Below, in pieces: positions 39,594-63,657 of a DNA stretch of 64,000 nt; the stretch's first letter is position 1; the number at the start of each line of letters is the position of its first letter. Below the pieces are notes generated by a model. It did not search any database. It had not been told where the DNA came from and saw only the letters and a list, made by a program, of their open reading frames with translations. The position numbers and the translations under genes were made by a program. Where the stretch lies: assembly GCA_028288965.1 (NCBI GenBank), contig JAQGHD010000019.1:25202-89201 (forward strand). Direction: 5' to 3'. This DNA comes from Candidatus Saccharimonadota bacterium. GTDB taxonomy: Bacteria > Patescibacteriota > Saccharimonadia > Saccharimonadales > JAQGHD01.

Positions 39594-39914
39594 TTACGCC
39601 GCCGTTCTGGATGCCTGCGATCTCGCAGCATGCCACAAGAAATAGGCAAGCGCGGCGAAGATCACACCCAGGATGTTGCGCCAGGTGATTGACCGGAAGA
39701 ATGCCCAAAGCAGGAGCATGGCCGAAGCGAAGTAGAGCACGCAGGTAGCCAGCGCATTCTTCGTCAGTTCGTACGTCTCGTACCCAGCGATCGCGACGAC
39801 CACGGCAAAGAGCACGACGAAAAGTGTGCCGGCGTTGTGGCCAGAAACCAGTTGGTGCACGCTGATGAGGCCGGCGACCAAGGCGGCGATGTAGGTAATG
39901 AACTTGGGACTCAT
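39594..39914 (-). CDS. Small 4-TM membrane protein
   Basis: AAGGAG RBS, hydrophobic, C-ending codon bias. Confidence 0.7.
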   Translation of the reverse strand: MSPKFITYIAALVAGLISVHQLVSGHNAGTLFVVLFAVVVAIAGYETYELTKNALATCVLYFASAMLLLWAFFRSITWRNILGVIFAALAYFLWHAARSQASRTAA

Positions 39915-39939
39915 AACATGTCTCCTTGGTAGGGAACGA

Positions 39940-40245
39940 TCAGCGGCCGGAAGGCCGGACAGGTTGGCGAAGCAGACGACGCTGGTCGCGCACGCGGTTG
40001 CGGTGATCGAGATCGAGTGCCAGCCACATGATGACTGCCATGCCTAGGGCAATGGCTGCGATCGAGGCAGGCCTGAGCACGATGCTGTGAGGTTGGTGAT
40101 CGGCCAGGGCCGAAGCAATCTCGCAGAAGGCCGCGGGCAACAGCAAGCTGAGGCCGGTACGCCGCTTGTTCAGTTTGACGATGCAGACCCATGCCAGAGC
40201 AGCAAATGGGATGGCCAAAACAGCAAAGGCGGTACTGTCACTCAT
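39940..40245 (-). CDS. Small 3-TM membrane protein (start MSDST at 40245)
   Basis: AAAGGAAG RBS. The longer ORF-track start would overlap the promoter. Confidence 0.65.
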   Translation of the reverse strand: MSDSTAFAVLAIPFAALAWVCIVKLNKRRTGLSLLLPAAFCEIASALADHQPHSIVLRPASIAAIALGMAVIMWLALDLDHRNRVRDQRRLLRQPVRPSGR

Positions 40246-40273
40246 GAATGAGCACTTCCTTTCCGGTTGGTGT

Positions 40274-40354
40274 AACAGGGAACTTGTGAAGGTTCTTTGG
40301 AGCAACTGCTCGACAAAGTATAGATATAATGGCATAAAATACTAAAAATATCAA
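40274..40354 (-). promoter_or_regulatory. Promoter, 5' hairpin, boxA-like motif and leader strand
   Basis: TTGATA(40349-54)-17-CATTAT, hairpin CTTTG-TC-GAGC-AGTT-GCTC-CAAAG, AACCTTCACAA, then AAGTTCCCTGTT complementary to 39577-39587. Confidence 0.55.
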
Positions 40355-41723: not shown

Positions 41724-41776
41724 TTCGCTTTCGCTCTTTTGAGCTCATCAGTATGAATACACATTCATAAAACGAA
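41724..41776 (-). ncRNA. Type III hammerhead ribozyme (copy A)
   Basis: Minus strand: UUCGU-U-U^ UAUGAAU-GUGU-AUUCAUA CUGAUGA GCUC-AAAA-GAGC GAAA GCGAA. Predicted cut between 41770 and 41769. Confidence 0.85.
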
Positions 41777-41900
41777 AACGACAAATAGACAGAGATAAAG
41801 ATACACAAAGCAGCCAGGGAGGTGGCAAGGCTTTGATATATCAATATCACTGCCTATTTGCCATTCTCGCTTTACCGAGAACTTTTCTCGACCGTCAGTG

Positions 41901-42566
41901 TCAGTTGGCGTCCTGCACAATAAACCCAAACGTCAGGTCATCTTGGTCGCGGAGGTAAGGGAACAGACCCACGTAGGAGGTGCTCAAGCGCCCGGCCGCG
42001 ATCTTGCTGATGACGCTTTCCAGGTGCTGTTTTGCCCGATCTACGTCTGTAACGCGCGTGTCGATGTCCAAGGCTGCTGCCCGGAGTTCGAGCACGTAGC
42101 CCTTGACACCGTCTAGGTCTGTCAATTCGATGGCTACTTGCCTGGTTGCGTCAGCGAAAGCCTGCTGGTCCATGATCTGTTTGGTGATGTGGCTCATTGG
42201 CGTGAACCTTGCAAGGTTGCTGTTGAAGGTGATGATCACCCGGCGGAATGGCCATTCTGTCTGCGGTGTTGCGAGAACACGCTTGTCTCCACGCAAGGGG
42301 AACAAGTCCAACAGATTCTGGGTCGCCCAATCGATGGTAACCTGAACCCACTCTGCAACGGCAGCTGAATTCGTGACGTTGTCACGATACTCAACCGACA
42401 TGTCAAAACGGTTGATGTTGCAGCCAAAGACGCCGTCATGTTGCATAATGCGACCCCTAAGGGGCAGCACTGCATCGCGGTGATCCTCTGAGTTAAAGGT
42501 GCCTGTCTCTTCGTTGATTCCGGTTATAGCCGTATTGAATTCGAACGTGAGAGTCTGATTGGTCAT
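41901..42566 (-). CDS. Hypothetical protein with two similar ~100-aa alpha/beta repeats
   Basis: AGGAG RBS, internal repeat (FEFNT../ITFNS.., HDGV/LDGV, LFPLRG/LFPYLR). Confidence 0.75.
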   Translation of the reverse strand: MTNQTLTFEFNTAITGINEETGTFNSEDHRDAVLPLRGRIMQHDGVFGCNINRFDMSVEYRDNVTNSAAVAEWVQVTIDWATQNLLDLFPLRGDKRVLATPQTEWPFRRVIITFNSNLARFTPMSHITKQIMDQQAFADATRQVAIELTDLDGVKGYVLELRAAALDIDTRVTDVDRAKQHLESVISKIAAGRLSTSYVGLFPYLRDQDDLTFGFIVQDAN

Positions 42567-42686
42567 GTTGGCTCCTGCTTCAACTCACCTGACTGTTTGT
42601 CCCAACTGACGTTGGCGCGTATCCATAATGAACACACAAAGTGAGATACCAAGACGCATGGGTGTCCTAGTAACTCACTTTGTGTT

Positions 42687-42773
42687 TCTGTCTATTTGTC
42701 AAATAACACCTTTGGAACCCATTGGCTCAACAAAAGCAAACATTATATTACCATATAATCATAAAAAAGTCCA
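42687..42773 (-). promoter_or_regulatory. Promoter, conserved 5' hairpin, boxA-like motif and leader strand (unit A)
   Basis: TGGACT(42768-73)-17-TAATAT, 44-nt block 42696-42739 repeated at 43497-43540, TGTTATTTGACAA, 42687-42700 is a perfect inverted repeat of 41780-41793. Confidence 0.75.
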
Positions 42774-42792
42774 CAATCTGTTTGGACGGTTA

Positions 42793-42843
42793 CCGCTTTC
42801 GCTCTTTTGAGCTCATCAGTATGAATACACATTCATAAAGCAG
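42793..42843 (-). ncRNA. Type III hammerhead ribozyme (copy B)
   Basis: Minus strand: CUGC-U-U^ UAUGAAU-GUGU-AUUCAUA CUGAUGA GCUC-AAAA-GAGC GAAA GCGG. Predicted cut between 42838 and 42837. Stem III differs from copy A but still pairs. Confidence 0.85.
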
Positions 42844-42946
42844 AAATGACGACCAGACAGGAGTTTAGGGTAGAGGGATGACCACAAGGGTCAAACGTCT
42901 AGTTTCCTAAACTGCTCCCTGATGGTCATTTTTGCGCGCGATAACG

Positions 42947-43378
42947 CTATCCGTTATCGCACAAGCGTGGGGTCTGTTGAGACGCCGGCAGCTTGTTGAA
43001 ACTGAGGATGTTCTTGAACGACGAGAAGAGCGGCACACGCCAACCCTTGATTTGCACGCTGTACGTCGTCTCGGGCTGGATCTTGCCGTAGGCGTCGGCA
43101 GTGTTAAACCGTGTCTTGCCGAACAGCGAGTCCTTCATGACAAACGTGCCACCACTGGTGTAGATGCGGTATTCGCCGCCGTTTTGGGTAGCTACGCGCT
43201 CCTTGCTGCACACCGTCAGCACGCGAGTGCTGATGTGGTTGTAGTTGTGGAAGATGGCAGAGATGCCGACTACGAGGGCCAAAACGACCGCCGCAATGGC
43301 AACTGCACAACCCGCGCCCTGGAAATTCTCTCGACGACGAGCCCGATACTGGTTCGCATCACTAGTTCTCATGGACAT
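42947..43378 (-). CDS. Membrane-anchored DUF1523-like protein (phage-associated type)
   Basis: TM helix then TV.SKER..YRIYT..GTF..KDS..RFN.AD.YG......Y.....GWRVP.FS.F.NI, AAAGGAAG RBS. Confidence 0.65.
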   Translation of the reverse strand: MSMRTSDANQYRARRRENFQGAGCAVAIAAVVLALVVGISAIFHNYNHISTRVLTVCSKERVATQNGGEYRIYTSGGTFVMKDSLFGKTRFNTADAYGKIQPETTYSVQIKGWRVPLFSSFKNILSFNKLPASQQTPRLCDNG

Positions 43379-43489
43379 AGGGTCTTCCTTTCTCCTCTCC
43401 TCGGCATACAGCCTAAGGTGTTTATCCTAAACACACAAGGTGAGGAACAAAAGTACAATAATTATACGTTTGGTGCTCACCTTGTGCTT

Positions 43490-43574
43490 TGTCTGGTTGT
43501 CAAATAACACCTTTGGAACCGATTGGCTCAACAAAAGCAATGTAGATAATAACATAAAAATGCGCAAAAGTCCA
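43490..43574 (-). promoter_or_regulatory. Promoter, conserved 5' hairpin, boxA-like motif and leader strand (unit B)
   Basis: TGGACT(43569-74)-17-TATTAT, same 44-nt block, 43490-43501 pairs 11/12 with 42848-42859. Confidence 0.75.
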
Positions 43575-43607
43575 CATCTCTACAGATGTGCATGCTACAC
43601 TAGGCTC

Positions 43608-50571: not shown

Positions 50572-52767
50572 ATGCTTACCGATTTAGTAATTGCTATAGT
50601 CTGTACCATTATCATGTCCATTCTCGGACTAGTGATAGTGCTTAGAAATCCAAAAAATACGACCAATTTACAGTTTGGCTTTTTGTCATTTTCTATATCT
50701 GCCTGGTCTGTTTTTAACTACTTCTCTGGTGGGAGTTCGACTAATCGTTTAGTATTACAACTTGTTTTCTTCTTTGGGGTACTCACGGCCTATTCCCTGA
50801 TAGTATTTATGCTTAACTTCCCGATTAGTATTTCCGCGAGTCGTTTTATTAGTCGAGTTTTAACATATGCAACGGCCATTATGCTGGTTGTGGTTTTTCT
50901 CCCTGGGTTTATAAAAAACATTACAAAAGATAACATCGAAACAGGCAGTCTATATATTGTTTTTATTGTCTATGCCTTGATCGCTCTCGGTTTACTGGCA
51001 TTCTTAGCATCTGTGCAAATTAGAGCCTCAAAGACTAAAACATCAAAGCAACAAGCAAAGCTCATAGCTCTGGGAGTTATGCTCTATGCTGTGTTTGCGC
51101 TTCTGTCCAATGTCATCATCCCTTTATTTGTTGATAATTGGACAAGCTCAAGGTTTGGTCCCGTTTTTTCACTGTTGCTTGTAGCCATGGTTGCGTACAG
51201 CATTGTGAAGCATAGGCTGTTTGATATTCGATTGATCGTGGCCAGGTTTTTGGCATACGTTCTACTGCTCGCTAGTTTGACTACCACCTACGCGATCATT
51301 GTTTACGCATTTACGCAGAAAATTACTTTCAGGGGCGATCTAAGCTTTATTAAGAATGCGATACCTTTCGTGGCAGCTATATTAATTGCACTCAGTTTCC
51401 AGACTGTAAAAAAATTCTTTGATCGAGTGTCAAACAAATATTTTTATCAAGACGCTTATGACCCGCAGCTGTTTCTTGATGAACTAAATAAAATACTTGT
51501 TTCAACAATTGAAATTAAGACTTTGCTGGAGAAAGTAGCTGACCAAATAAACCTCAATCTTAAATCTCAGTTTGCAATATTTAGTATCAAAAGTACTCCT
51601 CACACTGATAGCCGTAGTGCTGGTAGTCCAGGCACGTTACGGGTAGATAGCGATGGTGTTCATGAAGTAATTACTGCCATGAGTAGCCTCAGACAAAAAA
51701 TTATAGTTGCCGATGATATTGAGGATGAAGCAAACTTAAAGAAATTATTAACTAAACATAATATTGCCATGCTTCTCCGATTAACAAGTTCTGGAAAAGA
51801 TTCAAAAGAAAGTGTTGGCTACTTGTTGCTGGGCGCCAAAAAAAGTGGCAGTCCTTATAGCAACAATGACACAAAAATTATGGGCATTATCACCAATGAG
51901 TTAGTCATCGCCATTCAAAATGCGCTACGTTTTGAGGAGATCCAGCAATTCAACCTGACCTTGCAGCAGAAAGTGGACGATGCCACACACAAACTTCGGC
52001 AGACCAACGAAAAACTGAGGCAACTGGATGAGACCAAGGACGAGTTCATTAGCATGGCTTCGCACCAACTGCGAACGCCGTTAACTAGTGTGAAGGGCTA
52101 TGTCAGCATGGTGCTGGAAGGTGACGCCGGTAAGGTGAGCAAATCGCAAAAAGATCTGCTGAATCAAGCGTTTACGAGTAGTCAGCGCATGGTTTACTTG
52201 ATTGCAGATCTGCTCAACGTCTCACGTTTGCGCACCGGAAAATTTGTGATTGACGCCAAACCTACAAACTTGGCTGATGTAGTACAAGGTGAAATCGGTC
52301 AGCTGATAGAAACTGCTAAAGGCCGTAACTTGGAGCTAACCTACCACAAGCCAGACCACTTCCCTGTGCTAAATCTGGACGATACTAAAACCCGCCAGGT
52401 AATTATGAACTTTATAGATAACGCCATTTATTACACCCCTGCCAAAGGGCATATTAAGGTGAATTTGGCCGAGAGCGATGATGCCGTCGAGTTCACGGTG
52501 GTTGATAATGGCTTGGGTGTGCCTAAAGCTGAACAGCACCATTTATTTACCAAGTTTTATCGGGCTGGTAATGCCAAAAAAGCCCGGCCAGATGGCACGG
52601 GACTGGGACTATTTATGGCCAGAAAAGTTATTGTCGCCGAAGGGGGCGCCGTGATCTTTAAGAGTGAAGAAGGCAAGGGCAGTACCTTTGGCTTTAGCTT
52701 CCCCAAGTCCAAGTTGCTGGTACATGACAGCCCCGCCAAAAATTCTCCAGCCGTTGCTACCAAGTAA
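50572..52767 (+). CDS. Membrane sensor histidine kinase (7TM-type sensor, GAF-like, HisKA, HATPase)
   Basis: About 9 TMs, FISMASHQLRTPLT, NFIDNAIYY, DNGLG, GTGLGL. Confidence 0.95.
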   Translation: MLTDLVIAIVCTIIMSILGLVIVLRNPKNTTNLQFGFLSFSISAWSVFNYFSGGSSTNRLVLQLVFFFGVLTAYSLIVFMLNFPISISASRFISRVLTYATAIMLVVVFLPGFIKNITKDNIETGSLYIVFIVYALIALGLLAFLASVQIRASKTKTSKQQAKLIALGVMLYAVFALLSNVIIPLFVDNWTSSRFGPVFSLLLVAMVAYSIVKHRLFDIRLIVARFLAYVLLLASLTTTYAIIVYAFTQKITFRGDLSFIKNAIPFVAAILIALSFQTVKKFFDRVSNKYFYQDAYDPQLFLDELNKILVSTIEIKTLLEKVADQINLNLKSQFAIFSIKSTPHTDSRSAGSPGTLRVDSDGVHEVITAMSSLRQKIIVADDIEDEANLKKLLTKHNIAMLLRLTSSGKDSKESVGYLLLGAKKSGSPYSNNDTKIMGIITNELVIAIQNALRFEEIQQFNLTLQQKVDDATHKLRQTNEKLRQLDETKDEFISMASHQLRTPLTSVKGYVSMVLEGDAGKVSKSQKDLLNQAFTSSQRMVYLIADLLNVSRLRTGKFVIDAKPTNLADVVQGEIGQLIETAKGRNLELTYHKPDHFPVLNLDDTKTRQVIMNFIDNAIYYTPAKGHIKVNLAESDDAVEFTVVDNGLGVPKAEQHHLFTKFYRAGNAKKARPDGTGLGLFMARKVIVAEGGAVIFKSEEGKGSTFGFSFPKSKLLVHDSPAKNSPAVATK

Positions 52768-54043: not shown

Positions 54044-54072
54044 TTGACATTTACTCTGTTATGTGATATATT
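54044..54072 (+). promoter_or_regulatory. Sigma70 promoter
   Basis: TTGACA-17-TATATT with extended TG. Confidence 0.8.
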
Positions 54073-54077
54073 TGGAA

Positions 54078-54590
54078 CATCCTAACCTTAGGTGTGGAAG
54101 AAGTTCCGTTACTAGAGAAATCAGCGTTAGACAAGCAGAACTCCGTGTAAACGAAAATCTGCTGCTTTTACGTCTGGTTTCACCAGGAATCTAAGGATAT
54201 AGGGGTGCCTTAACAAGTTGAATCATTACAGAACAGTTATTATCTGTTAACGGATATAACCTTGGACAGACCATCTAATACTAGTACTCCTGTGATAACA
54301 GGGGTAGTTTATGCGTGCTAGGCACGCATGGCTAGTGTTAAGGCGGTCTGTCCACGGTTGAGGCATTAATTGCCTCCCGAAAGGCAGATAAGCAACTACA
54401 AAACCTATGCAAATCAAAAGATATTTCCGAACCATGTGAAATGAAAGACATCTTTGCCGATAAATTTTGTCGGCTTAGATGTCTTTCATTTCACAATGGA
54501 AATCCTGTGCTTGCCTGTATGTGGAGCAAAGGAGAAAGGCAATCTGCAATATCCCTCAACGCATACCAGCGCAATAGGAAGGAATCGGAA
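54078..54590 (+). ncRNA. ~510-nt highly structured 5' leader with boxA-like motif and leader strand
   Basis: Stems 54263-72/54345-54 and 54435-53/54477-95 (19 bp perfect), ATGCGTGC-TAG-GCACGCAT, GTGCCTTAACAA at 54205-16, 54215-35 complementary to 57085-105. Confidence 0.65.
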
Positions 54591-55217
54591 ATGCCCATCA
54601 ATGTCACTGACATTGTCACCGCCGCAGCCGACGTCGAGAAGGACGAGGACAAGGCCGCCCAGAAGCGCATCGCCGCCATCATCAATAGGATGGTTCGCGT
54701 GTACAACTCGGGTGGCAATACCACGGTCTTCGATTCGGTCGAGCTGCTCCTCGGCATCAAGCCGGGCGGCGTCAAGGAGCTCCTCACCCAATTGGGCATT
54801 ACCCTGCCCAACGAGGACGAACCCGACAACACACCGCGTGCGTTAAACGCACCCGGAGCCTCACGCAGGAACATCCACAACTGGGTGGACGTGTACGAGA
54901 ACCGAGAGGGCACTGTCAAGTCGACCGATGTCGACAAGGTCCTGGCCGGCGACATGGTGAAGATCAACGAGTACAACCTCGCACCGATCTTCGCTAATGA
55001 CGACCCGAGCCAGATCGTCGGCTACTACAAGCGACCCGTGCCCGCTCCGGCGCCTGCCCCGACCAACGACACCGTCGTGGTTGCCGGCAAGCGTGGGAAG
55101 CCCGACACGGTCATCAACAGAGTTGACTACCAAGCGAACTCGGCTGCATACCGCGTGCTCGAGCACCACCCCGATGGCACGCCGAAGCGAGTCGCCAAGT
55201 TGCCCCGAGTTCTCTAG
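54591..55217 (+). CDS. Hypothetical protein (start MPINV)
   Basis: GGAAGGAA RBS. Strong C-ending codon bias begins at this ATG. Confidence 0.75.
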   Translation: MPINVTDIVTAAADVEKDEDKAAQKRIAAIINRMVRVYNSGGNTTVFDSVELLLGIKPGGVKELLTQLGITLPNEDEPDNTPRALNAPGASRRNIHNWVDVYENREGTVKSTDVDKVLAGDMVKINEYNLAPIFANDDPSQIVGYYKRPVPAPAPAPTNDTVVVAGKRGKPDTVINRVDYQANSAAYRVLEHHPDGTPKRVAKLPRVL

Positions 55218-55357
55218 GAACCAAGACGAAAGCCCGGAAAGCTAACTAAATTTCCGAGGGGGCGTTCCGAACGAGCGGACATGCTTTGGCATGAGAGAAT
55301 GTCATGTTCTCTACGTCCACGAAGTCGTACAGTTCACCTAAGACAGGAGGTGACCAG

Positions 55358-56731
55358 TTGGTCATCAAGTTACTACTGCTGATCATGGCCGCCGCATCCC
55401 TCGCGCTTGTGGTGGTTAGCTGGAAAAGAAAGGTGGCCATTGGTCGCCGCTACCACTACTTCAGGGCACTGCCGATGACTGCGGCCGCCGCTGTGGTGTT
55501 GGTAATCGCTGCCACACTTGCGTGGTCAAACACGCACGCGGACGGCCAGACGGTTACTACCACGACCACTACGTCGTCGACCACGGTTGGTCTCCCGACC
55601 AACGGCTCCATCCCCAAGGGCGGAGTCACCATCAAGGTCAGCGACGAGGTGATCAAGAAGATCACAGTCCGTACGGCATCGTTCGACTGCCCGACGCTGG
55701 TTACCAGCCACGGCGGAAGCACGATGGCCTCACTCAACGAGACGGTTGTTGTCCCCAGCGTGAACGTGTACAAGGATGTTTCGACCAGCCGCAAGGCCTC
55801 GGACAACCTCGACACGCCACTGCCGGGCAAGACGCCGACTCAGCAACGGGACTACCTGCGAGCCCGCATCTGCGAGAACGCCCTTTTGGGTGGCTCGTGG
55901 GCGAACATGCTCGCTGGGTTGAACTTCGACGGCATTTCGGTGCTGAAGCAAAACCCATGGTTGCGCCAGTTCGCTGACGTGTCCAAGGTGAACGATCGAG
56001 CGGAGTACTACTTTCCGTTCATCAACATCAAGTCCCCCGAAAAGACGCTGACCGATGCCCAGAAGGTCCTCGCCGTCCGGCGCAACATTGCCTGGCAGCA
56101 AGAGGCCGAGCTCATCGGGACGCTCATCGGGCAGTTCCAGATCGTTGGTGACCAAGCGCCTACAAGCGTGCGGAACTGGCATCTGGCAATGCACGGAAGT
56201 GAGGTCAAGGCCCACGCGTTCCCCGAAGTCGGGCTCAACCCCCTCCAGGAGAACCGTCCGGCGTTGGTAATTCGGTTGATTGACAAGGGCGCTTGCGCTC
56301 CTTGGCTCGCAATCGGTGCCAACCTGGAAGACAAGCGACCGGAAGTCTTCATGGAAGCTCCGAAGCTCGTCTGCCAACGGCCTAAGCCCAAGCCGCGTCC
56401 TGGTACGCCTGGTTCGACGAGCCCTCACCGGCCGCCGACACACGGAACGACCACGACCACCCGGCCGGGGACGACCACGACCACTCAGCCGACAACGTCG
56501 ACCACAGTGGTTTGTTCCTCCGGCAAATGCCAGCCACCAAACACAGTTGCACCACCCCCAATAACGGCAGCGCCGTCTACCACGACAACCACGTCACACG
56601 GCGCTGGACAAGGTGGTTCCGGTACTGGTGAGTCGACAAACACGACGACTCCGTCGCCGACGTCTGTACCTTCGGGCACGACGCCGACTTCTACCGCTAC
56701 CGGCGGGGATACTGGGGCTCCGCCTCCGTAA
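55358..56731 (+). CDS. Membrane-anchored extracellular protein with Pro/Thr-rich tail
   Basis: AGGAGG RBS before TTG 55358, two N-terminal TMs, low-complexity P/T C-terminus. Confidence 0.75.
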   Translation: MVIKLLLLIMAAASLALVVVSWKRKVAIGRRYHYFRALPMTAAAAVVLVIAATLAWSNTHADGQTVTTTTTTSSTTVGLPTNGSIPKGGVTIKVSDEVIKKITVRTASFDCPTLVTSHGGSTMASLNETVVVPSVNVYKDVSTSRKASDNLDTPLPGKTPTQQRDYLRARICENALLGGSWANMLAGLNFDGISVLKQNPWLRQFADVSKVNDRAEYYFPFINIKSPEKTLTDAQKVLAVRRNIAWQQEAELIGTLIGQFQIVGDQAPTSVRNWHLAMHGSEVKAHAFPEVGLNPLQENRPALVIRLIDKGACAPWLAIGANLEDKRPEVFMEAPKLVCQRPKPKPRPGTPGSTSPHRPPTHGTTTTTRPGTTTTTQPTTSTTVVCSSGKCQPPNTVAPPPITAAPSTTTTTSHGAGQGGSGTGESTNTTTPSPTSVPSGTTPTSTATGGDTGAPPP

Positions 56732-57105
56732 GCCGCTGTAGCGACGAGTTTGCGCCTATTGCGCAAAATAGACTGGTCTCTCGCCCATCCCTCTAAGTAC
56801 GTATGCCGCTCACCCGGTGTACTTAGCTGTCTAGTAAGGGAGAAACAAAATTTCGAGCATCCGCTCGAAATGCGAGTGAGGTTCCTGGGACGTCATGTTG
56901 ACGTGCATCCTTTGGATTCGTGAGAATTCATAAAAACCAGGTCGATTTGCATTGGTCATGATCGCACCCTCACGGGTTGCTTGAACATGGAGCTGTAGTT
57001 GCGCTCAAGCTGGGGCTGTTTGGTTCGAAATTTGATCTCCTTTTGGAGACCACCTTTCGATATCAAATAGCCCCGCTTTACCCATGTTTTGTAATGATTT
57101 AACTT
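56732..57105 (+). ncRNA. ~370-nt highly structured 3' trailer
   Basis: Hairpins TTTGCGC/GCGCAAA, CTAAGTAC/GTACTTAG, TTTCGAGC/GCTCGAAA, ACGTCA/TGACGT, GGGGCTGTTTG/CAAATAGCCCC, ending in the trailer strand 57085-105. Confidence 0.6.
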
Positions 57106-57179
57106 TACCTCCGCCAAAAGCAATTGACGAAGGAGAAGCTAGGTTCATTAACAATTGAAAACAATTAAACGTAAGCATA

Positions 57180-57278
57180 TTGACATTACGTACAAGTTGT
57201 GATAAAGTAAGCTTAAACTGTGTGGTGGGTCGTTTATGGTAAGCAAACGACGCCCGGGCGGTTCATGGTCTTTAACAA
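57180..57278 (+). promoter_or_regulatory. Sigma70 promoter, hairpin and boxA-like motif
   Basis: TTGACA-17-TAAAGT (extended TG), GTCGTTT/AAACGAC hairpin, GGTCTTTAACAA at 57267-78. Confidence 0.7.
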
Positions 57279-57330
57279 CTCGGTAAGCAATAAAAGTGTG
57301 GTGGGATACATTAATTATTTAGGAGGTGTT

Positions 57331-58599
57331 ATGAATATATTCAAACACTTGCCAAAACAAGCTGTTGCCGTGCTATCTGCCATTGTCATAATGGTTGGAT
57401 TAAGCTCACCAGCAATGGCTGCTTTTGGCCCAGACCGTCCTACCAAGGCATGGAGTCCTACGGTAAGCGGTTTTGACCACGTAACTTTCAACTCATTTAC
57501 TGGCGTCGGCAACGGCGTTGGAGACGAGCGTGATTTTATGCGTGGCATACAAGTTGGTCGCGACAGTACTTGGACTGATCCAGTCAAAAACGTGTCGCAG
57601 GACGCAGAAGTAGAAGCAAAAATCTACATACATAACAACGCCGACGCTACTTTAAATGATGCCCCTGGCAACCCTGGTGTTGCCAAGAACGTAACCGTTC
57701 GTGTGGCATTACCTAGTGGTGCTAAGCAAACTCAAGAAGCTACTGCTTTCATTAAGGCAGATAACGCTCAGCCTGGTACGGTAACAGATACCTTAACTAT
57801 GACTGGCGCTAACAATGGTTTCTTTCAGTTAGCTTACGAAAACGGTACAGCTCAAGTTCACGACCAAAGTGGCCATGTCACTGCCTTAACAGCTGCTCAA
57901 GAGCAAGCCTTGACAGGTACCGGTTGGAACATGGGTGACCAAAAAGGTTGTTTCGCATTCGTAAAGGAAATTACCTTTAAAATGCGAGTTCAAATGCCAG
58001 AGCACTCAATCTCTAAGCAAGTTGCCCTTCCTGGTCAAACTGCTAAAGATTGGACCGAGAAAGTAAATGTTAAGCAAGGCGACACCGTCTCTTGGTTAGT
58101 TACTTTCCGAAACGCTGGTAAGACTGAGCTTGATCACATCAAGATCGTTGACGATATTCCGGTTGGTTTAACAGTTGTTCCTGGTACGGTAAAACTTACC
58201 AACGGCAACTACCCAAACGGCTATGTCTACGCCGATAAAGACGTTGTTCAAGCCAATGGTCGCCAACTCAATATAGATATTGGTAACTATCTGCCAGGTG
58301 GCGCAGCTTACATTTCTTATCGAACAACTATCGATAAGACGGCTGAGCCGGTATGTAAGCCTATGGCTTTGGTTAACAAAGCCTTTGCTACACCTGCAGG
58401 TTACGGTGCTGTTTGGGATGTCGCTGAAGCTGATGTTGCCGCACAAAGTTGCGCAACCACTCCTCCAGCCACTCCTGTCACTACCACGAGCTTGCCAAAC
58501 ACTGGTGCTGGAAACGTAGTTGCAATTTTTGCCGCTACAACCGCCGCTGGTGCTGTTGCTTACCGATGGTTTGTCGGTCGACGTCTGTCTCGTCGATAA
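57331..58599 (+). CDS. DUF11-domain LPXTG cell-surface protein
   Basis: AGGAGG RBS, signal peptide, TFNS.T...GDER.F, YIHNNA, DUF11, LPNTG plus TM plus RR. Confidence 0.85.
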   Translation: MNIFKHLPKQAVAVLSAIVIMVGLSSPAMAAFGPDRPTKAWSPTVSGFDHVTFNSFTGVGNGVGDERDFMRGIQVGRDSTWTDPVKNVSQDAEVEAKIYIHNNADATLNDAPGNPGVAKNVTVRVALPSGAKQTQEATAFIKADNAQPGTVTDTLTMTGANNGFFQLAYENGTAQVHDQSGHVTALTAAQEQALTGTGWNMGDQKGCFAFVKEITFKMRVQMPEHSISKQVALPGQTAKDWTEKVNVKQGDTVSWLVTFRNAGKTELDHIKIVDDIPVGLTVVPGTVKLTNGNYPNGYVYADKDVVQANGRQLNIDIGNYLPGGAAYISYRTTIDKTAEPVCKPMALVNKAFATPAGYGAVWDVAEADVAAQSCATTPPATPVTTTSLPNTGAGNVVAIFAATTAAGAVAYRWFVGRRLSRR

Positions 58600-58779: not shown

Positions 58780-58854
58780 GGCCCCTTCGTCTAACGGTTA
58801 GGACACCAGGTTTTCATCCTGGCAACAGGGGTTCGATTCCCCTAGGGGTCACCA
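58780..58854 (+). tRNA. tRNA-Glu (TTC)
   Basis: Acceptor GGCCCCT/AGGGGTC, anticodon arm CCAGG-TTTTCAT-CCTGG, T-loop GTTCGATTC, encoded CCA. Confidence 0.95.
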
Positions 58855-60406
58855 CAAGAGACTCATCATTTGATGGGTCTTTTTTGTTGGCTTCGTACTG
58901 ACGTTCTATATCTGATGTTTCCTGTAAAATAGGGCTGAGAATTGCGGTTCCAAAAGACTTATCTGGATTTACGACAATTCCAGCCTCACAAATGGCGTTT
59001 TGGAACCGCTGCTGGTCATTTAGTTCCGCAGTACGCCACGCAACAGGGAGGTTTACTAGAAATGACACTGCCTGATCTACTATTTGCTCATTGCGAGCCT
59101 CTGTGTCTTTTAACTCGTTTCTAGCGACCTCTAACTCTACTCGCTGGATTGCGAGCCGGCTCTCCTGCTCCTGATAGGTCTCAGCCGGTATTATGTCCTT
59201 GAGGAACTTATCCATTAGGCTATTCTTCATGTCCTCGGCATTTTTGAGCTGTTGGTCGATCTTGCGTCTTTCTAGTTGGGCATCTACAAAGTCGTTGTTC
59301 CAACGCCGCAGCACCACTTGCTTGAATATTTCAGGCACCCAAGACGCTGGTTCTGCTTTGGCGAGTAATGCCTCGAATTGTTCATGAGCTTTTAACTTGG
59401 GTATTCGGACAGTGTTGCCGGTAGCCTTGCGAGTACAGGTGGTGCAGTGATACGCAGCAAAATGTCCTGTCCTGCCTTTTGAGGCACTTGCAGTCAGTGG
59501 CTTATTGCAAATGCCACAGATTAAAAAACCACGAAGCGGATAGGCTGGTTTATTTCGTGGCAGGCTAGATTTTGGTCGTCCTTTACCGTCTAATATGCTT
59601 TGATTGAGCAAATAGTGGTCGAGCGTAATGACCGGCGTATGAATCCCTTTAATGCGTACACCATCTGAAAGATCATTCTGAATGTAGCCAGCATATACAG
59701 GGTTCCGAAGAAGTTTGATTGTTCCATTTCTCGAAATGGGATCGTTGCCTTTACCACAAATACCATGCTTATGAGCAAGCTCTACGGCTTGAGTCTGAGT
59801 GTAATTTCCAGTGGCAAACTCAGAAAAAAAGCCGAACAATTTCTCGGCACTTTCAGTAGTGATCGCTAGCGTTGGTCTCTTTGCTACATCCTTGATGTTA
59901 ATATAGCCAGCCGGTGCTTTACTGACCCAACAGCCCTCTTTCACTCTTGCTACCATACCTCCACGAGACCTTTCGGATCGCACGTCATTATCGAACTGTG
60001 CAAAGCTGGCAAGTACGTTTTCTAGCAACATGCCAGTGGTGGTCGAATCAATCGGTTCGGATGCTGACCAAAGAATGATGTCCAACTTCTTGAGTAACGC
60101 CCTGAGAGCTGAATGGTCAGCTACCTTTCTGGAAAATCTATCGACCTTGTAAACGACTAGATGTCCGATTGTTTTGCGGTTGGCGAGACAAAACTTTAAC
60201 AACTCTTGCAGCTCAGTACGATCTGCGGTTTTGGCACTTTCGCCTTCCTCGGTGAACTCCTTAATTACCGTCAATTCTTTTAGCTTACAGAAGTCTTTGC
60301 AGATACGCAGTTGTTCACCGAGACTCATATTATCAACCTGTCGGTCACTTGATACTCGTGTGTATATCACGGCACCAGTTTTGACGTTAGGTAGTTTCTT
60401 CTTCAT
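58814..60406 (-). CDS. Large serine recombinase (resolvase, recombinase and Zn-ribbon domains)
   Basis: YTRVSS..Q, ESAKT.DR, DRFSR, LRNPVYAG, CGIC..YHC..C, coiled coil. The 3' end overlaps tRNA-Glu. Confidence 0.95.
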   Translation of the reverse strand: MKKKLPNVKTGAVIYTRVSSDRQVDNMSLGEQLRICKDFCKLKELTVIKEFTEEGESAKTADRTELQELLKFCLANRKTIGHLVVYKVDRFSRKVADHSALRALLKKLDIILWSASEPIDSTTTGMLLENVLASFAQFDNDVRSERSRGGMVARVKEGCWVSKAPAGYINIKDVAKRPTLAITTESAEKLFGFFSEFATGNYTQTQAVELAHKHGICGKGNDPISRNGTIKLLRNPVYAGYIQNDLSDGVRIKGIHTPVITLDHYLLNQSILDGKGRPKSSLPRNKPAYPLRGFLICGICNKPLTASASKGRTGHFAAYHCTTCTRKATGNTVRIPKLKAHEQFEALLAKAEPASWVPEIFKQVVLRRWNNDFVDAQLERRKIDQQLKNAEDMKNSLMDKFLKDIIPAETYQEQESRLAIQRVELEVARNELKDTEARNEQIVDQAVSFLVNLPVAWRTAELNDQQRFQNAICEAGIVVNPDKSFGTAILSPILQETSDIERQYEANKKDPSNDESLVVTPRGIEPLLPG

Positions 60407-60476
60407 AGTTCACCTCTAATTCTGACCCGATGGGTCGGTTAATTCAATAACCTATCGTGGGATTTGGAACCGGCAT

Positions 60477-60641
60477 TTATTCCTTAACTTGCAGATCCTT
60501 TTTAGCTTGTTTTATATAGATTTGAGCCATGATGTCGAGCTGGCGAATCACCTCTACGACTTGTTCATCGGAGATTTGTGCGGAGGCGAATCCAGTTAGG
60601 CTCCTGAACTCCTCGATTGTGATGATTGCCTGCTCGTTCAT
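60477..60641 (-). CDS. Small 54-aa protein upstream of the recombinase
   Basis: MNEQAIITIEEFRSLTGFASAQISDEQVVEVIRQLDIMAQIYIKQAKKDLQVKE, below the ORF-track cutoff. Confidence 0.6.
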   Translation of the reverse strand: MNEQAIITIEEFRSLTGFASAQISDEQVVEVIRQLDIMAQIYIKQAKKDLQVKE

Positions 60642-60701
60642 GACACTGGAAGTCTAAGGCAGACGAAGAATTAGCTGTGATTGTCGATAATTGTCGGGGG
60701 G

Positions 60702-61490
60702 CTAGGCGGTGATCCCTAGATGTGCGGCTATCTTTCCTCGATAATGTTCGTTAATCTTCGATACAAGTTCAATTATTTGCCTGCGGTTCAATACGCTAGG
60801 ATTCTGTAAGGCAATATGCTTCTTATTTAATACCGGCAGCATAGGTGCCAGCCATAAGTAATGATTCTTAGTCAGTAGTTGCTTGAAGTCGAGGTCGTCA
60901 TCAAGCGGTGCAAAATCGATAGCGTTAAGCGGCTGACCTGATGGCATCTTTTGCAGCTGTGTCAAAAGTTGCGGTACCATTCCCTCTATCGGTCGTGCCA
61001 CCTGAAAATCTTCGTTATTGATGCTTAGCATTAACTTATTGTCTCTTTGCCATAGCTTGCAAACGTATTCTGTCGGTGCCGGTGCGACATGTCCTGTTTC
61101 CATGATAAGTTTGTCGAACAGCCGTTGGAACGTATATGGCGTGATATCCAGCATCACTTCATCTGATAGCTCACGATAGTCGATATGGAATCCCATCGGT
61201 ATCTTCGCTGGGTTCAGTAGCGTACCGTCACGATAGATTGCTGAAACATCAATACATAATTCTCGGTATAGCTTGAAAATCAGCATCCATTGCATCTCTG
61301 ACGACTGCGGTGCCAGCCCAAGTGCTGTAAAAAGAGGTGCAGTCTGGTCGAGGTGTAGCCACACCTGGTTGGTCTTTACACCAATCTCCTCGCTTTCATG
61401 GAGTGAGTGCTGGGCAAGAAGCACTCGCATAAAATCGAGCAATAGGGTATCAATGTCAGCTGGGCTGACTTTGGATTCGCCTCCGGTCAT
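60702..61490 (-). CDS. Hypothetical protein
   Basis: 262-aa ORF co-oriented within the island. Confidence 0.65.
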   Translation of the reverse strand: MTGGESKVSPADIDTLLLDFMRVLLAQHSLHESEEIGVKTNQVWLHLDQTAPLFTALGLAPQSSEMQWMLIFKLYRELCIDVSAIYRDGTLLNPAKIPMGFHIDYRELSDEVMLDITPYTFQRLFDKLIMETGHVAPAPTEYVCKLWQRDNKLMLSINNEDFQVARPIEGMVPQLLTQLQKMPSGQPLNAIDFAPLDDDLDFKQLLTKNHYLWLAPMLPVLNKKHIALQNPSVLNRRQIIELVSKINEHYRGKIAAHLGITA

Positions 61491-61547
61491 AAGCTAATTA
61501 TACAATAATTTTACTTCTCGTAATTATGATTATGAGAAGTAACAAGC

Positions 61548-62378
61548 TTATTTGCTTGAGAAATCGAGTCCAAGATGACCATTTTTGCGTGAGATAAGCT
61601 CATCCTTTGAGATCTCGGTATGGCTTACTAACTTGTAATGCCGCTCGTCAACCACACTAAGGCGTAATATTTCATCCTCTTCAACGACAGCCAACTCAAT
61701 AGCGGCAACCTCGTTTGTACTGACAAACATGAACGCCAGCGGTCTGCATATTGCTTCTGGGTATTTCAGATTACAGAAGGTAAGATCTTGGATTACTTGA
61801 ACGATGCCGAAGCGGTCACCTGGTGACTTAGCTTGAATTGGTAAGACGTAATTCACACCGGTGCGGTCTATGCCGACATAAAATTCGTCAATCTCAATCT
61901 GTCCGATGCTTTCAACCGTAGTTCGTAAATGATTCTGTACCGAGTAGCAGGTTAAGCCGGTGAAAGTATCGATAAGGCGGTTGTATCTGACTCTTGCAAG
62001 CAGTGCTTGCTCATCACGACCAGCCGCATAGTGCTTGAGTATCTCTGGTGTAGAGTCAGGTATGCTCAGATTTATAAGATTAGGATTCGGAGACACTTTG
62101 CCAGGAGCAGCCAGTCGAAACTCGTAATTTGCTATACCACTGCCCACAATAATCCATTCCGCTCCTGCCGGTGCGGTCTTCTGGATCGATTCTGGCAGTT
62201 CTTTTCTGAACCGGAAACTGTATGTTATATCGCCGAGATTTCGGATTCGAGGGATTTCTAATTCATCACATGCAGCAACAAGGTCTTCTCTATGGAAGGC
62301 TAAACGCTTCAATCCCACTTGGTACTTCTTGTGGAATATCAATGCTATTATCTGGCTGTATTTGCTGCTTTTTTCCAT
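61548..62378 (-). CDS. Putative type II restriction endonuclease (PD-(D/E)XK-like)
   Basis: QIEIDE...PIQAK, directly downstream of and overlapping a C5 methyltransferase. Confidence 0.7.
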   Translation of the reverse strand: MEKSSKYSQIIALIFHKKYQVGLKRLAFHREDLVAACDELEIPRIRNLGDITYSFRFRKELPESIQKTAPAGAEWIIVGSGIANYEFRLAAPGKVSPNPNLINLSIPDSTPEILKHYAAGRDEQALLARVRYNRLIDTFTGLTCYSVQNHLRTTVESIGQIEIDEFYVGIDRTGVNYVLPIQAKSPGDRFGIVQVIQDLTFCNLKYPEAICRPLAFMFVSTNEVAAIELAVVEEDEILRLSVVDERHYKLVSHTEISKDELISRKNGHLGLDFSSK

Positions 62379-63657
62379 CTAGGGCTATAAGTCTTTTCCG
62401 AATTGGGATGATTCCTCTGTCAACGCTGAAAAACGCTGCTGCGTCTGTCATATTGAATTGTAGAAGCTTTGCATCCTGTTTGTCCAGCTCATAGACCGGT
62501 AGATCACTTGGATTGATGCCCAATTTACGAATAACCTCGTCACCGAGTGCTTTCCCGAACATCGGAGCCACGGCATTGCCTATCTGGCGGAAACCATGCC
62601 AAACAGTTCGATGAAACTGAAACCAATCAGGGAATGAGTGCAGTCTAGCCGCTTCTCTAATGGAGATACAGCGAGGGAGTTTATAGTGGATTGGTCGGGG
62701 TGCAGTATGAGCGCCCTTATCGCTTGTCGTGCCAGCCCTCAGTGTGTTGCAGGGTCGGTCAGGGTGTAAGCGAAAGAATCGGCTGGTAGTTTCCGTAGTG
62801 CCTGGCTCGGTGTCGATAAAGCGGTCGATAGATATTTGACCATGCACGGAGCCAACATGCCCCCATAAAAGTCCATCAGTCTGTCGAATATGACAAAGAT
62901 TGAACAGTGAGCCTTCGTGCCGGTTATAGTTCTTACGGTACTCGTGATCATAAGTTAGGTTGTTCGGTAAGCCCTTATCATTCTTGATATTGACTGGGAT
63001 ATCTTCAAGATCTCCGATTGCACTCTTTGCCCCTACAAATGCAGTCGAATCGAATAAGCTTACGACTTTATCACTCTTCTCTATATGCGTAGGATCAGGA
63101 TACTTCAATTCAGGCATATCACCCCGACTTCCCAGAATAATAAGCCTTCGTCGCTTCTGCGGTACACCATAGCTGGCTGCACTTAACACCTTGATTTGTT
63201 TATGTATCTTGTAGCCGAGCTTCTCACACTCTTCAACCAGCTCCTCAACAAACTTAATCTGCTTGCCGGCAATCATGCCTGGCACGTTTTCAAGCAAGAA
63301 GTACTTCGGTCGTAAATCTTTCACGACACGCAGATACTCGAATACAAGCTTGTTGCGAGGATCATCGAGTTGACGCTTGCCAATGGTAGAGAACCCCTGG
63401 CAGGGCGGTCCACCTACAAGCATATCCAGCTCGTCATAACCCTTCTCTTGCAGGGCTTTTTTGAGTTCGATAGTCTCAAGCTTGTTCATGTCGGTACAGA
63501 AGGTTTTCGAGTAAGGAAAATTAAACTCATGAGCAGCTGCATGAACAGGATCAAACTCAACGGCGGCAACAACATCAAAGCCTGCTGCCTCAAAGCCTAG
63601 CGACAATCCGCCGACACCGGCAAACAAGTCAATAACAGATGGTCGTTTTCCCCTCAT
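62290..63657 (-). CDS. DNA (cytosine-5)-methyltransferase
   Basis: DLFAGVGG, GGPPCQGFS, ENVPG, PQKRRR, REAARLHSFPD, QIGNAV. Confidence 0.95.
   Translation of the reverse strand: MRGKRPSVIDLFAGVGGLSLGFEAAGFDVVAAVEFDPVHAAAHEFNFPYSKTFCTDMNKLETIELKKALQEKGYDELDMLVGGPPCQGFSTIGKRQLDDPRNKLVFEYLRVVKDLRPKYFLLENVPGMIAGKQIKFVEELVEECEKLGYKIHKQIKVLSAASYGVPQKRRRLIILGSRGDMPELKYPDPTHIEKSDKVVSLFDSTAFVGAKSAIGDLEDIPVNIKNDKGLPNNLTYDHEYRKNYNRHEGSLFNLCHIRQTDGLLWGHVGSVHGQISIDRFIDTEPGTTETTSRFFRLHPDRPCNTLRAGTTSDKGAHTAPRPIHYKLPRCISIREAARLHSFPDWFQFHRTVWHGFRQIGNAVAPMFGKALGDEVIRKLGINPSDLPVYELDKQDAKLLQFNMTDAAAFFSVDRGIIPIRKRLIALDGKKQQIQPDNSIDIPQEVPSGIEAFSLP

Follow-up and report, generated by a model that had tools for sequence, protein, structure and literature searches.

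A 64,000-nucleotide (nt) stretch of DNA (hereafter the window) from a Candidatus Saccharimonadota bacterium, whose source genome spans 916 kb and is 94.4% complete, carries at positions 54,044 to 57,105 a transcription unit in which two open reading frames (ORFs) lie between complementary leader and trailer strands. Here we report a computational analysis of this unit (hereafter the cassette), which is real, conserved and undescribed within the literature searched. The architecture established from the sequence comprises a promoter, a boxA-like motif, predicted nested helices closing the two ORFs, a second boxA-like motif and a surface-protein gene. We favour, at a probability of roughly 40%, the reading that the cassette encodes its proteins in an RNA laid out like a 16S ribosomal RNA (rRNA) precursor, and that this RNA would be antiterminated, closed and excisable, and would be translated in the bacterial host of this parasite. 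The evidence comes from leader–trailer pairing across related units and from a codon shift that accompanies the wrapping strands.

The leader–trailer helix and its conservation

The outer helix, first described in an initial annotation of the window, consists of 19 Watson–Crick and 2 G–U pairs (Table 1), and its duplex energy of −24.5 kcal/mol compares with a best value of −19.4 kcal/mol among 300 shuffles (mean −12.6, s.d. 1.7). The promoter and the boxA-like motif proposed upstream of it were borne out, and 56 of 58 homologous units have a promoter-like site 76-199 nt upstream of their helix. The helix was said to follow directly after boxA; the two are indeed adjacent, except that the final two bases of the motif are already part of the helix. 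Folding positions 54078-57165 in one piece recovered the outer helix together with two nested 9-base-pair (bp) leader–trailer helices. These inner helices go beyond the initial annotation, as do the second boxA-like motif at 57143-57154 and the link between wrapper and codon bias described below. Inner leader–trailer helices scoring at least 10 occur in 41 of 58 cognate pairs, compared with 68 of 174 non-cognate pairs. A structured 5′ domain of ~125 nt had been noted; the structure is present, but it extends over ~515 nt of leader (54075-54600; z score −10.65), and the trailer is structured as well (z score −5.65). In the internal leader helix, nine positions are each paired in 10-11 of 11 aligned rows, with two-sided changes at several.

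Of 400 other genomes in the order, 18 gave matches in a search with the leader DNA, some of them due to chance. A 22-nt pattern, run against a collection of species genomes, returned 87 loci, 80 of them with flanks, and 78 remained after removal of two duplicates. The distal complement is present in 62 of these 78 related loci. Among the 16 without it, 11 stop within 2.2 kb downstream and five have complete DNA with no partner, four of the five carrying names of other phyla and the fifth that of an uncultured bacterium. Two of these (L050 and L053) were excluded by hand, because their best match left the core unpaired. The final set, to which five loci from the leader search were added, comprises 69 units spanning 452-3724 nt, with 65 distinct helices. 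Across 17 core positions in these 65 helices (1,105 cells), 976 cells hold Watson–Crick pairs, 109 G–U, 10 A–C and 10 other combinations, and several positions show two-sided changes. The 5′ strand is fixed by the search pattern, which allows more A–C than G–U opportunities; the large excess of G–U over A–C thus argues for pairing in the sense RNA, and upholds the earlier suggestion of selection on RNA and not on DNA ends. In L214, L220 and L230, pairing is retained with unrelated arm sequences. The motif with two mismatches occurs in 59 of 401 genomes (a tally that counts G352, flagged as unpublished), against about 18 for the reversed control, and six matches in viral contigs, which pair at just 13-14 of 17 positions, were taken as chance. 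Judged by these pairing patterns, the leader–trailer helix is a conserved RNA structure, and the two ORFs are almost certainly enclosed in a closed RNA.

The core arm sequence is itself strongly conserved across many genomes, with up to three copies in some. In some genomes, one helix recurs in two or three cassettes (L046, L071, L079, L089, L044, L104, L110, L039 and L107); there, the shared helix encloses small low-GC genes or phage-tail-lysozyme genes, and two such cases have a pair of leader strands in one region together with the matching trailers. In the source genome, the cassette ranks first (score 20) among 68 intergenic boxA-like sites, and none of 533 random intergenic controls scores above 16.5. 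The genome-wide scan that had been proposed singles out this site but shows no general enrichment at loose thresholds, as 13 of 68 sites and 79 of 533 controls score at least 12.

A second TTRAYAA core lies within 80 nt past the helix in 60 of the 69 units, overlapping the helix end in three. Because the 16S and 23S genes are not assembled in this genome, boxA was compared with the rRNA operons (rrn) of relatives. Five Saccharimonadales relatives have a similar box in the 16S leader, 2-5 nt ahead of the helix strand, and in one of them the box shares the TTTAACAA core with the cassette boxA, in agreement with the rRNA-operon-like layout first proposed. The sequence of the rrn helix in the relatives differs from that of the cassette helix. 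In Escherichia coli, boxA recruits an antitermination complex, another set of boxes lies ahead of 23S, and the helix is a substrate cleaved by RNase III (PMC10250234). The genome encodes nusB and rnc close to each other. Three genes 3′ of nusB-rnc (G000 C23:21138-21533) lies a 131-codon ORF, rich in G or C at third codon positions (GC3), with repeated CxxC motifs and a structured leader.

At gathering score, Rfam matched only the transfer RNA (tRNA), with no rRNA match in the unit; its ribozymes and introns gave no gathering-score match and nothing relevant in the untranslated regions at E ≤10, although a divergent or split core would escape this search. Weak microRNA-like matches to the 30-bp hairpin were dismissed as chance. 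A group I intron, considered from a GACUAC motif, was dropped, as the motif pairs with the trailer strand and its sequence shifts between subgroups. Two short motifs, CCATCTAATACTAG and TAACAGRGGT, are found repeatedly in the leader (54273-54345; L048, L030 and L033), in orientations that differ between relatives; hairpin flips or tertiary contacts may be involved.

Codon usage and cargo proteins

The C-ending codon bias noted in the initial annotation, unlike that of neighbouring genes, is present but spans GC3 more widely, with AAG, GAG, CCG and TCG included. TTC is used in 10 of 11 cases in the cassette (91%), compared with 22 of 114 (19%) in 23 ribosomal-protein and translation ORFs and 23% genome-wide, and AAG in 33 of 35 (94%), compared with 48% and 41%, respectively. 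Codon bias due to high expression was rejected, since the bias is missing from the parasite's ribosomal-protein genes. Within the GC-ending sets, GGC exceeds GGG and CCG exceeds CCC, and TTA, CTA and ATA are nearly absent, choices that we take to resemble the usage of high-GC bacteria. GC3 at synonymous sites (GC3s) is higher in the large cargo ORF than in the neighbouring DUF11 gene in all 46 measurable units (mean 0.66 versus 0.41).

A profile search with ORF2, the larger ORF, matched 27 of 300 other genomes; 20 homologs were fetched by protein, and seven were skipped (short contigs or already included). The homologs share one chromosomal slot and come in two states: nine are wrapped, ten are naked and one is cut by a contig end. 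The wrapped homologs have helix scores of 17.5-22.5 directly 3′ of a TTAA core; five of the nine had been missed by the RNA pattern, two of them with unrelated arm sequences. The naked homologs reach best helix scores of 12-14.5, and nine adjoin a DUF11 gene. GC3s of ORF2 is 0.66-0.86 in the wrapped and 0.24-0.56 in the naked homologs, and the difference from the DUF11 neighbour is +0.22 to +0.54 in the nine wrapped homologs and the window, compared with −0.14 to +0.03 in the ten naked ones, with no overlap (rank test, P = 1.8e-4, overstated since kin are not independent). A search from the DUF11 gene in five more genomes added three wrapped genes (0.66-0.85) and one naked gene (0.24), with no match in the fifth. 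The ORF2 tree requires four wrapped/naked changes (2-4 in bootstrap trees; a single change in none of 200). As homologs in the same slot differ in GC3s by wrapper state, the bias, on this sequence comparison, goes with the wrapper and is not a property of the protein family.

Strong Shine–Dalgarno (SD) sites had been reported for both ORFs; this stands for ORF2 (9-nt match) and less so for ORF1 (5 nt). ORF1 is almost unique to each locus; one weakly related protein (28% identity) is encoded in a different cassette. ORF2 has N-terminal membrane segments, a Cys-containing outer domain and a Pro/Thr tail. The large cargo ORFs form about four sequence groups plus singletons, all N-terminally anchored and mostly Pro/Thr-tailed, and the group of the window's ORF2 numbers 452 clusters at E ≤1e-10. 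Neither ORF matched Pfam or NCBIfam; a sequence search of the PDB returned a single row (E 0.53); a full-length ORF2 model (pLDDT 66, pTM 0.55) had no Foldseek match in the PDB or viral libraries, its VIA rows covering residues 1-67 only; and the ESM Atlas gave no usable match. Lipoproteins are recognized by a lipobox, scored here as a Cys after the signal h-region. Such a Cys is present in nine of 48 large cargo proteins, compared with none of 171 comparable ORFs of the genome and none of 68 flanking ORFs; the window's own ORF2 has none. The processing enzymes Lgt and LspA were each found in none of 30 genomes, those with lipobox cargo included, in a search in which 10 of 14 controls registered.

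Fate of the cassette RNA and competing explanations

On the favoured reading, by analogy with rrn biology, boxA would recruit NusB/S10 antitermination, so that transcription runs through the structured regions to the end and the two ends of the RNA come together, a step that we consider probable. RNase III would then cut the 17-25-bp outer helix and release the cassette RNA, which the same analogy makes slightly better than an even chance. The inner helices would keep the released cassette shut and block exonucleases. The closed RNA would be passed to the host and translated there, the least secure step, which the codon pattern allows us to propose only tentatively, and ORF2, as a membrane- or lipid-anchored surface protein, would end up in the host envelope. 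The codon shift is tied to the wrapper and is unlike the parasite's own usage, which hints at reading inside the host; actinobacterial hosts have high GC3. A VirB4-like gene in this genome marks a possible export route. Cultivated Saccharibacteria grow on Actinobacteria with an essential type IV secretion system (T4SS) (PMC10633639), and T4SS clusters of Patescibacteria mostly lack a relaxase (10.1101/2025.01.22.634366). In another Patescibacterium, host penetration, uptake of host RNA and codon usage complementary to the host have been described (10.64898/2026.06.21.733656). It is conceivable, with about as much doubt, that Saccharibacteria in general deliver messenger RNAs (mRNAs) to bacterial hosts, using host-like codons, end-protected RNAs and export through the contact machinery, so that the host builds parasite surface and membrane proteins. 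The protected RNAs might then be either rRNA-style closed cassettes or helix-plus-hammerhead units, a proposal that we regard as similarly tentative.

Several observations weigh against this reading. In eight of the 46 measured cassettes GC3s is just 0.30-0.48, several of these lying near the neighbour's value, and cargo GC3s correlates with that of the neighbour (r = 0.57). Well-supported branches of the ORF2 tree force just one wrapped/naked change, and the contrast may thus rest on few events. The parasite has tRNAs for AAG, GAG, CAG, CCG, TCG and CTG and would thus be able to translate the cargo itself. RNA flow as published runs from host to parasite, opposite to our proposal (10.64898/2026.06.21.733656). 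The high-GC actinobacterial host presumed here is that of most cultivated Saccharibacteria. Finally, naked ORF2s with parasite-like codons have a lipobox-like Cys (5 of 10 by a loose and 2 of 10 by a strict rule), whereas none of ten wrapped or contig-cut homologs does; the lipobox does not track the wrapper and was rejected as a wrapper-specific marker. Lgt was found in none of five genomes checked among those with lipobox-like naked ORF2s. Lipoboxes in naked homologs, together with the failure to find Lgt, point to host processing in both states or to another enzyme, and the ORF2 family thus seems, from sequence, to rely on one or the other.

Close behind host translation stands the possibility that the wrapper serves the parasite itself, providing antitermination and protection while the parasite makes the protein from a long-lived message; the GC-rich codons would have been selected for a compact, nuclease-resistant RNA, perhaps one that survives host-free periods or the parasite's RNA-degrading metabolism. 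The helix pairing, nested helices and boxA apply to this explanation equally, and ORF1 and ORF2 fold better than their synonymous shuffles (z scores −3.5 and −4.0), but the downstream low-GC gene is just as over-folded (−4.4), and codon choice is selective even within the GC-ending sets (GGC over GGG, CCG over CCC), as in high-GC bacteria. The tRNAs for the preferred codons are encoded, and the naked homologs, with lipoboxes among them, are co-transcribed with the parasite's surface-protein gene; lipoproteins, however, require Lgt and LspA, which these genomes did not yield.

It is unlikely that the wrapper is instead a landing slot for genes captured from high-GC donors (hosts or phages), whose signature has not been ameliorated. 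The cassette size range, the nearly complete difference of ORF1 between loci and the phage-tail-lysozyme genes enclosed by some short cassettes would suit capture, but unwrapped ORF2 homologs in the same slot have low GC3s, the few homologs with a taxon name (cluster look-ups gave one for 1 of the 20 sampled) are from Saccharibacteria or Patescibacteria, and ORF2 relatives were absent from the viral contigs searched. Less probable still is a circular mRNA made by cutting and ligation, in the style of archaeal pre-rRNA, or splicing that joins the leader to the surface-protein message. Three nested helices do bring the ends together, and the surface-protein gene begins ~90-120 nt past the helix in many relatives; against this, a search for RtcB in the genome (94% complete) found none, the unit has no gathering-score match to an intron or ribozyme family and the helix is an uninterrupted duplex. 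A DNA element, with the arms as the terminal inverted repeats of a transposon, an invertible segment or a recombinase cassette, as the recurrence of the core arm in several copies might suggest, is largely refuted by the sense-strand excess of G–U (109) over A–C (10), the lack of target-site duplications at the ends tested, the absence of a transposase among 107 cargo proteins, the fixed orientation and, in most loci, the constant location ahead of the DUF11 gene, and the wholesale replacement of arms in some relatives.

The locus, related units and known systems

The features of the locus are listed in Table 1. The leader of the DUF11 gene (57220-57305) contains a separate promoter, a GTGTGGTGGG repeat in two copies and an almost perfect boxA, which suggests that boxA is also used on ordinary surface-protein mRNAs. 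Further downstream lies an integrated island (58780-63657), in which genes for a large serine recombinase and a cytosine methyltransferase-like protein come after a tRNA-Glu gene.

Table 1 Features of the cassette, its surroundings and related loci
Feature	Position	Strand	Details
Sensor histidine kinase gene	50572..52767	+	Frequent upstream neighbour of the slot
Sigma-70-type promoter, extended −10	54044..54072	+	TTGACA at 54044, 17-nt spacer, TATATT up to 54072; 11/12 matches plus extended TG
Inferred transcription start	near 54078	+	
Structured 5′ domain	54078..54204	+	Opens with CAUCCU hairpin, present in relatives; length variable
boxA-like motif 1, GTGCCTTAACAA	54205..54216	+	TTAACAA core; 2-nt overlap with helix; logo of 69 units and relatives' rrn boxA
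LT1, leader strand of outer 21-bp helix	54215..54235	+	
Conserved internal leader domain	54258..54359	+	Helix 54264-72 / 54345-53 covaries
Leader strands of the two nested 9-bp helices (long-range)	54392..54415	+	LT2: 54392-54400; other: 54407-54415
30-bp hairpin	54435..54495	+	No sequence-level counterpart in relatives
ORF1	54591..55217	+	208 aa; no family; GC3s 0.81
ORF2	55358..56731	+	457 aa; TTG start; 9-nt SD; unnamed family; GC3s 0.72
Structured trailer	56732..57084	+	Partner strands 56944-56952 and 56994-57002; hairpin ahead of LT1′
LT1′, trailer strand of outer helix	57085..57105	+	
boxA-like motif 2	57143..57154	+	3′ of helix
Second promoter and third boxA-like motif	57180..57278	+	Third motif at 57267-57278
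DUF11-repeat surface-protein gene	57331..58599	+	Conserved downstream neighbour; GC3s 0.36
Six further intergenic hammerhead cores	G000 C1:2367, 6226, 14854, 16228, 17001; C30:1835		
More GC3-rich genes with structured flanks	G000 C14:19259-22410, C25:8536-10581, C1:27473-28444, C4:394-864, C22:26273-26692; window 39594-40335		No standard hammerhead

The cassette had been taken for a larger member of the same system as two units, A and B, elsewhere in the window (41726-42775 and 42794-43576, minus strand), which have a common leader and a GTTATTTGACAA box overlapping a 14-bp leader–trailer helix. The boxA-plus-helix start and GC-rich codons are shared, but A and B carry a type III hammerhead core past the trailer strand (29.8 and 23.7 bits; gathering score 48.5), with a predicted cleavage triplet that, unusually, ends in U, whereas the cassette lacks such a core and is closed off by another boxA, with the surface-protein gene after it. 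Type III hammerhead ribozymes are found in retrozyme-like elements. The genome holds eight hammerhead cores, all intergenic; the six others (Table 1) end GC3-rich units encoding, by eye, ThiF-like and membrane proteins. Seven of the eight follow ORFs with GC3s of 0.65-0.73 (95th percentile of the genome, 0.60). Of 151 genomes in the order, 43 contain the core pattern (control, 1), and at 20 of 22 usable loci GC3 is higher in the ORF before the core than in the ORF after it (seven of 29 were dropped for an ORF call over the site; one kept locus is from G032, flagged as unpublished). Some of the GC3-rich genes with structured flanks (Table 1) presumably encode PspA, SPFH and TPM-domain proteins, judged by eye.

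This locus is a concrete, testable candidate that bears on host manipulation by Patescibacteria and on the cargo of their relaxase-less T4SSs. Host translation, if true, would be a new mode of bacterial parasitism, with mRNA effectors passing between cellular bacteria, and the GC3 of wrapped genes would predict the host type of uncultured Patescibacteria. Even if it is false, rRNA-type antitermination and end-pairing would be reused on chromosomal mRNAs across the order, and the analysis has also revealed many unannotated hammerheads.

Full-text searches, with subscription journals and supplements largely outside their scope, found no description of such mRNA cassettes, and PMC11404451, judged by a term search, mentions neither Patescibacteria nor boxA nor mRNA cassettes. 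The wrapper is a variation on a known design, and the wrapper-linked codon switch matches no kind of element that we found. With the protein effectors proposed for the Saccharibacterial T4SS (PMC10633639), the cassette would share a parasite product aimed at the host envelope, but its presumed cargo is the mRNA itself, for which no case was found in the literature searched. Lambdoid nut sites and other boxA-controlled non-rRNA operons likewise place boxA on a protein-coding transcript (nut: PMC10250234), but no boxB/N pair was seen in the cassette, and the end-to-end helix is its defining feature. The ORF within a stem of flanking complementary strands recalls 23S intervening sequences, although the cassette is flanked by protein genes, has its own promoter and boxA and encodes different proteins. 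Such 23S rRNA intervening sequences are removed by RNase III and can contain an ORF. The rrn operon shares the promoter, boxA, a long helix around a kilobase loop and a second boxA downstream (PMC10250234; PMC11404451), whereas the cassette encloses two protein ORFs in place of rRNA, has a different helix sequence and adds inner nested helices and a wrapper-tied codon shift, which are without counterpart in the rrn operon.

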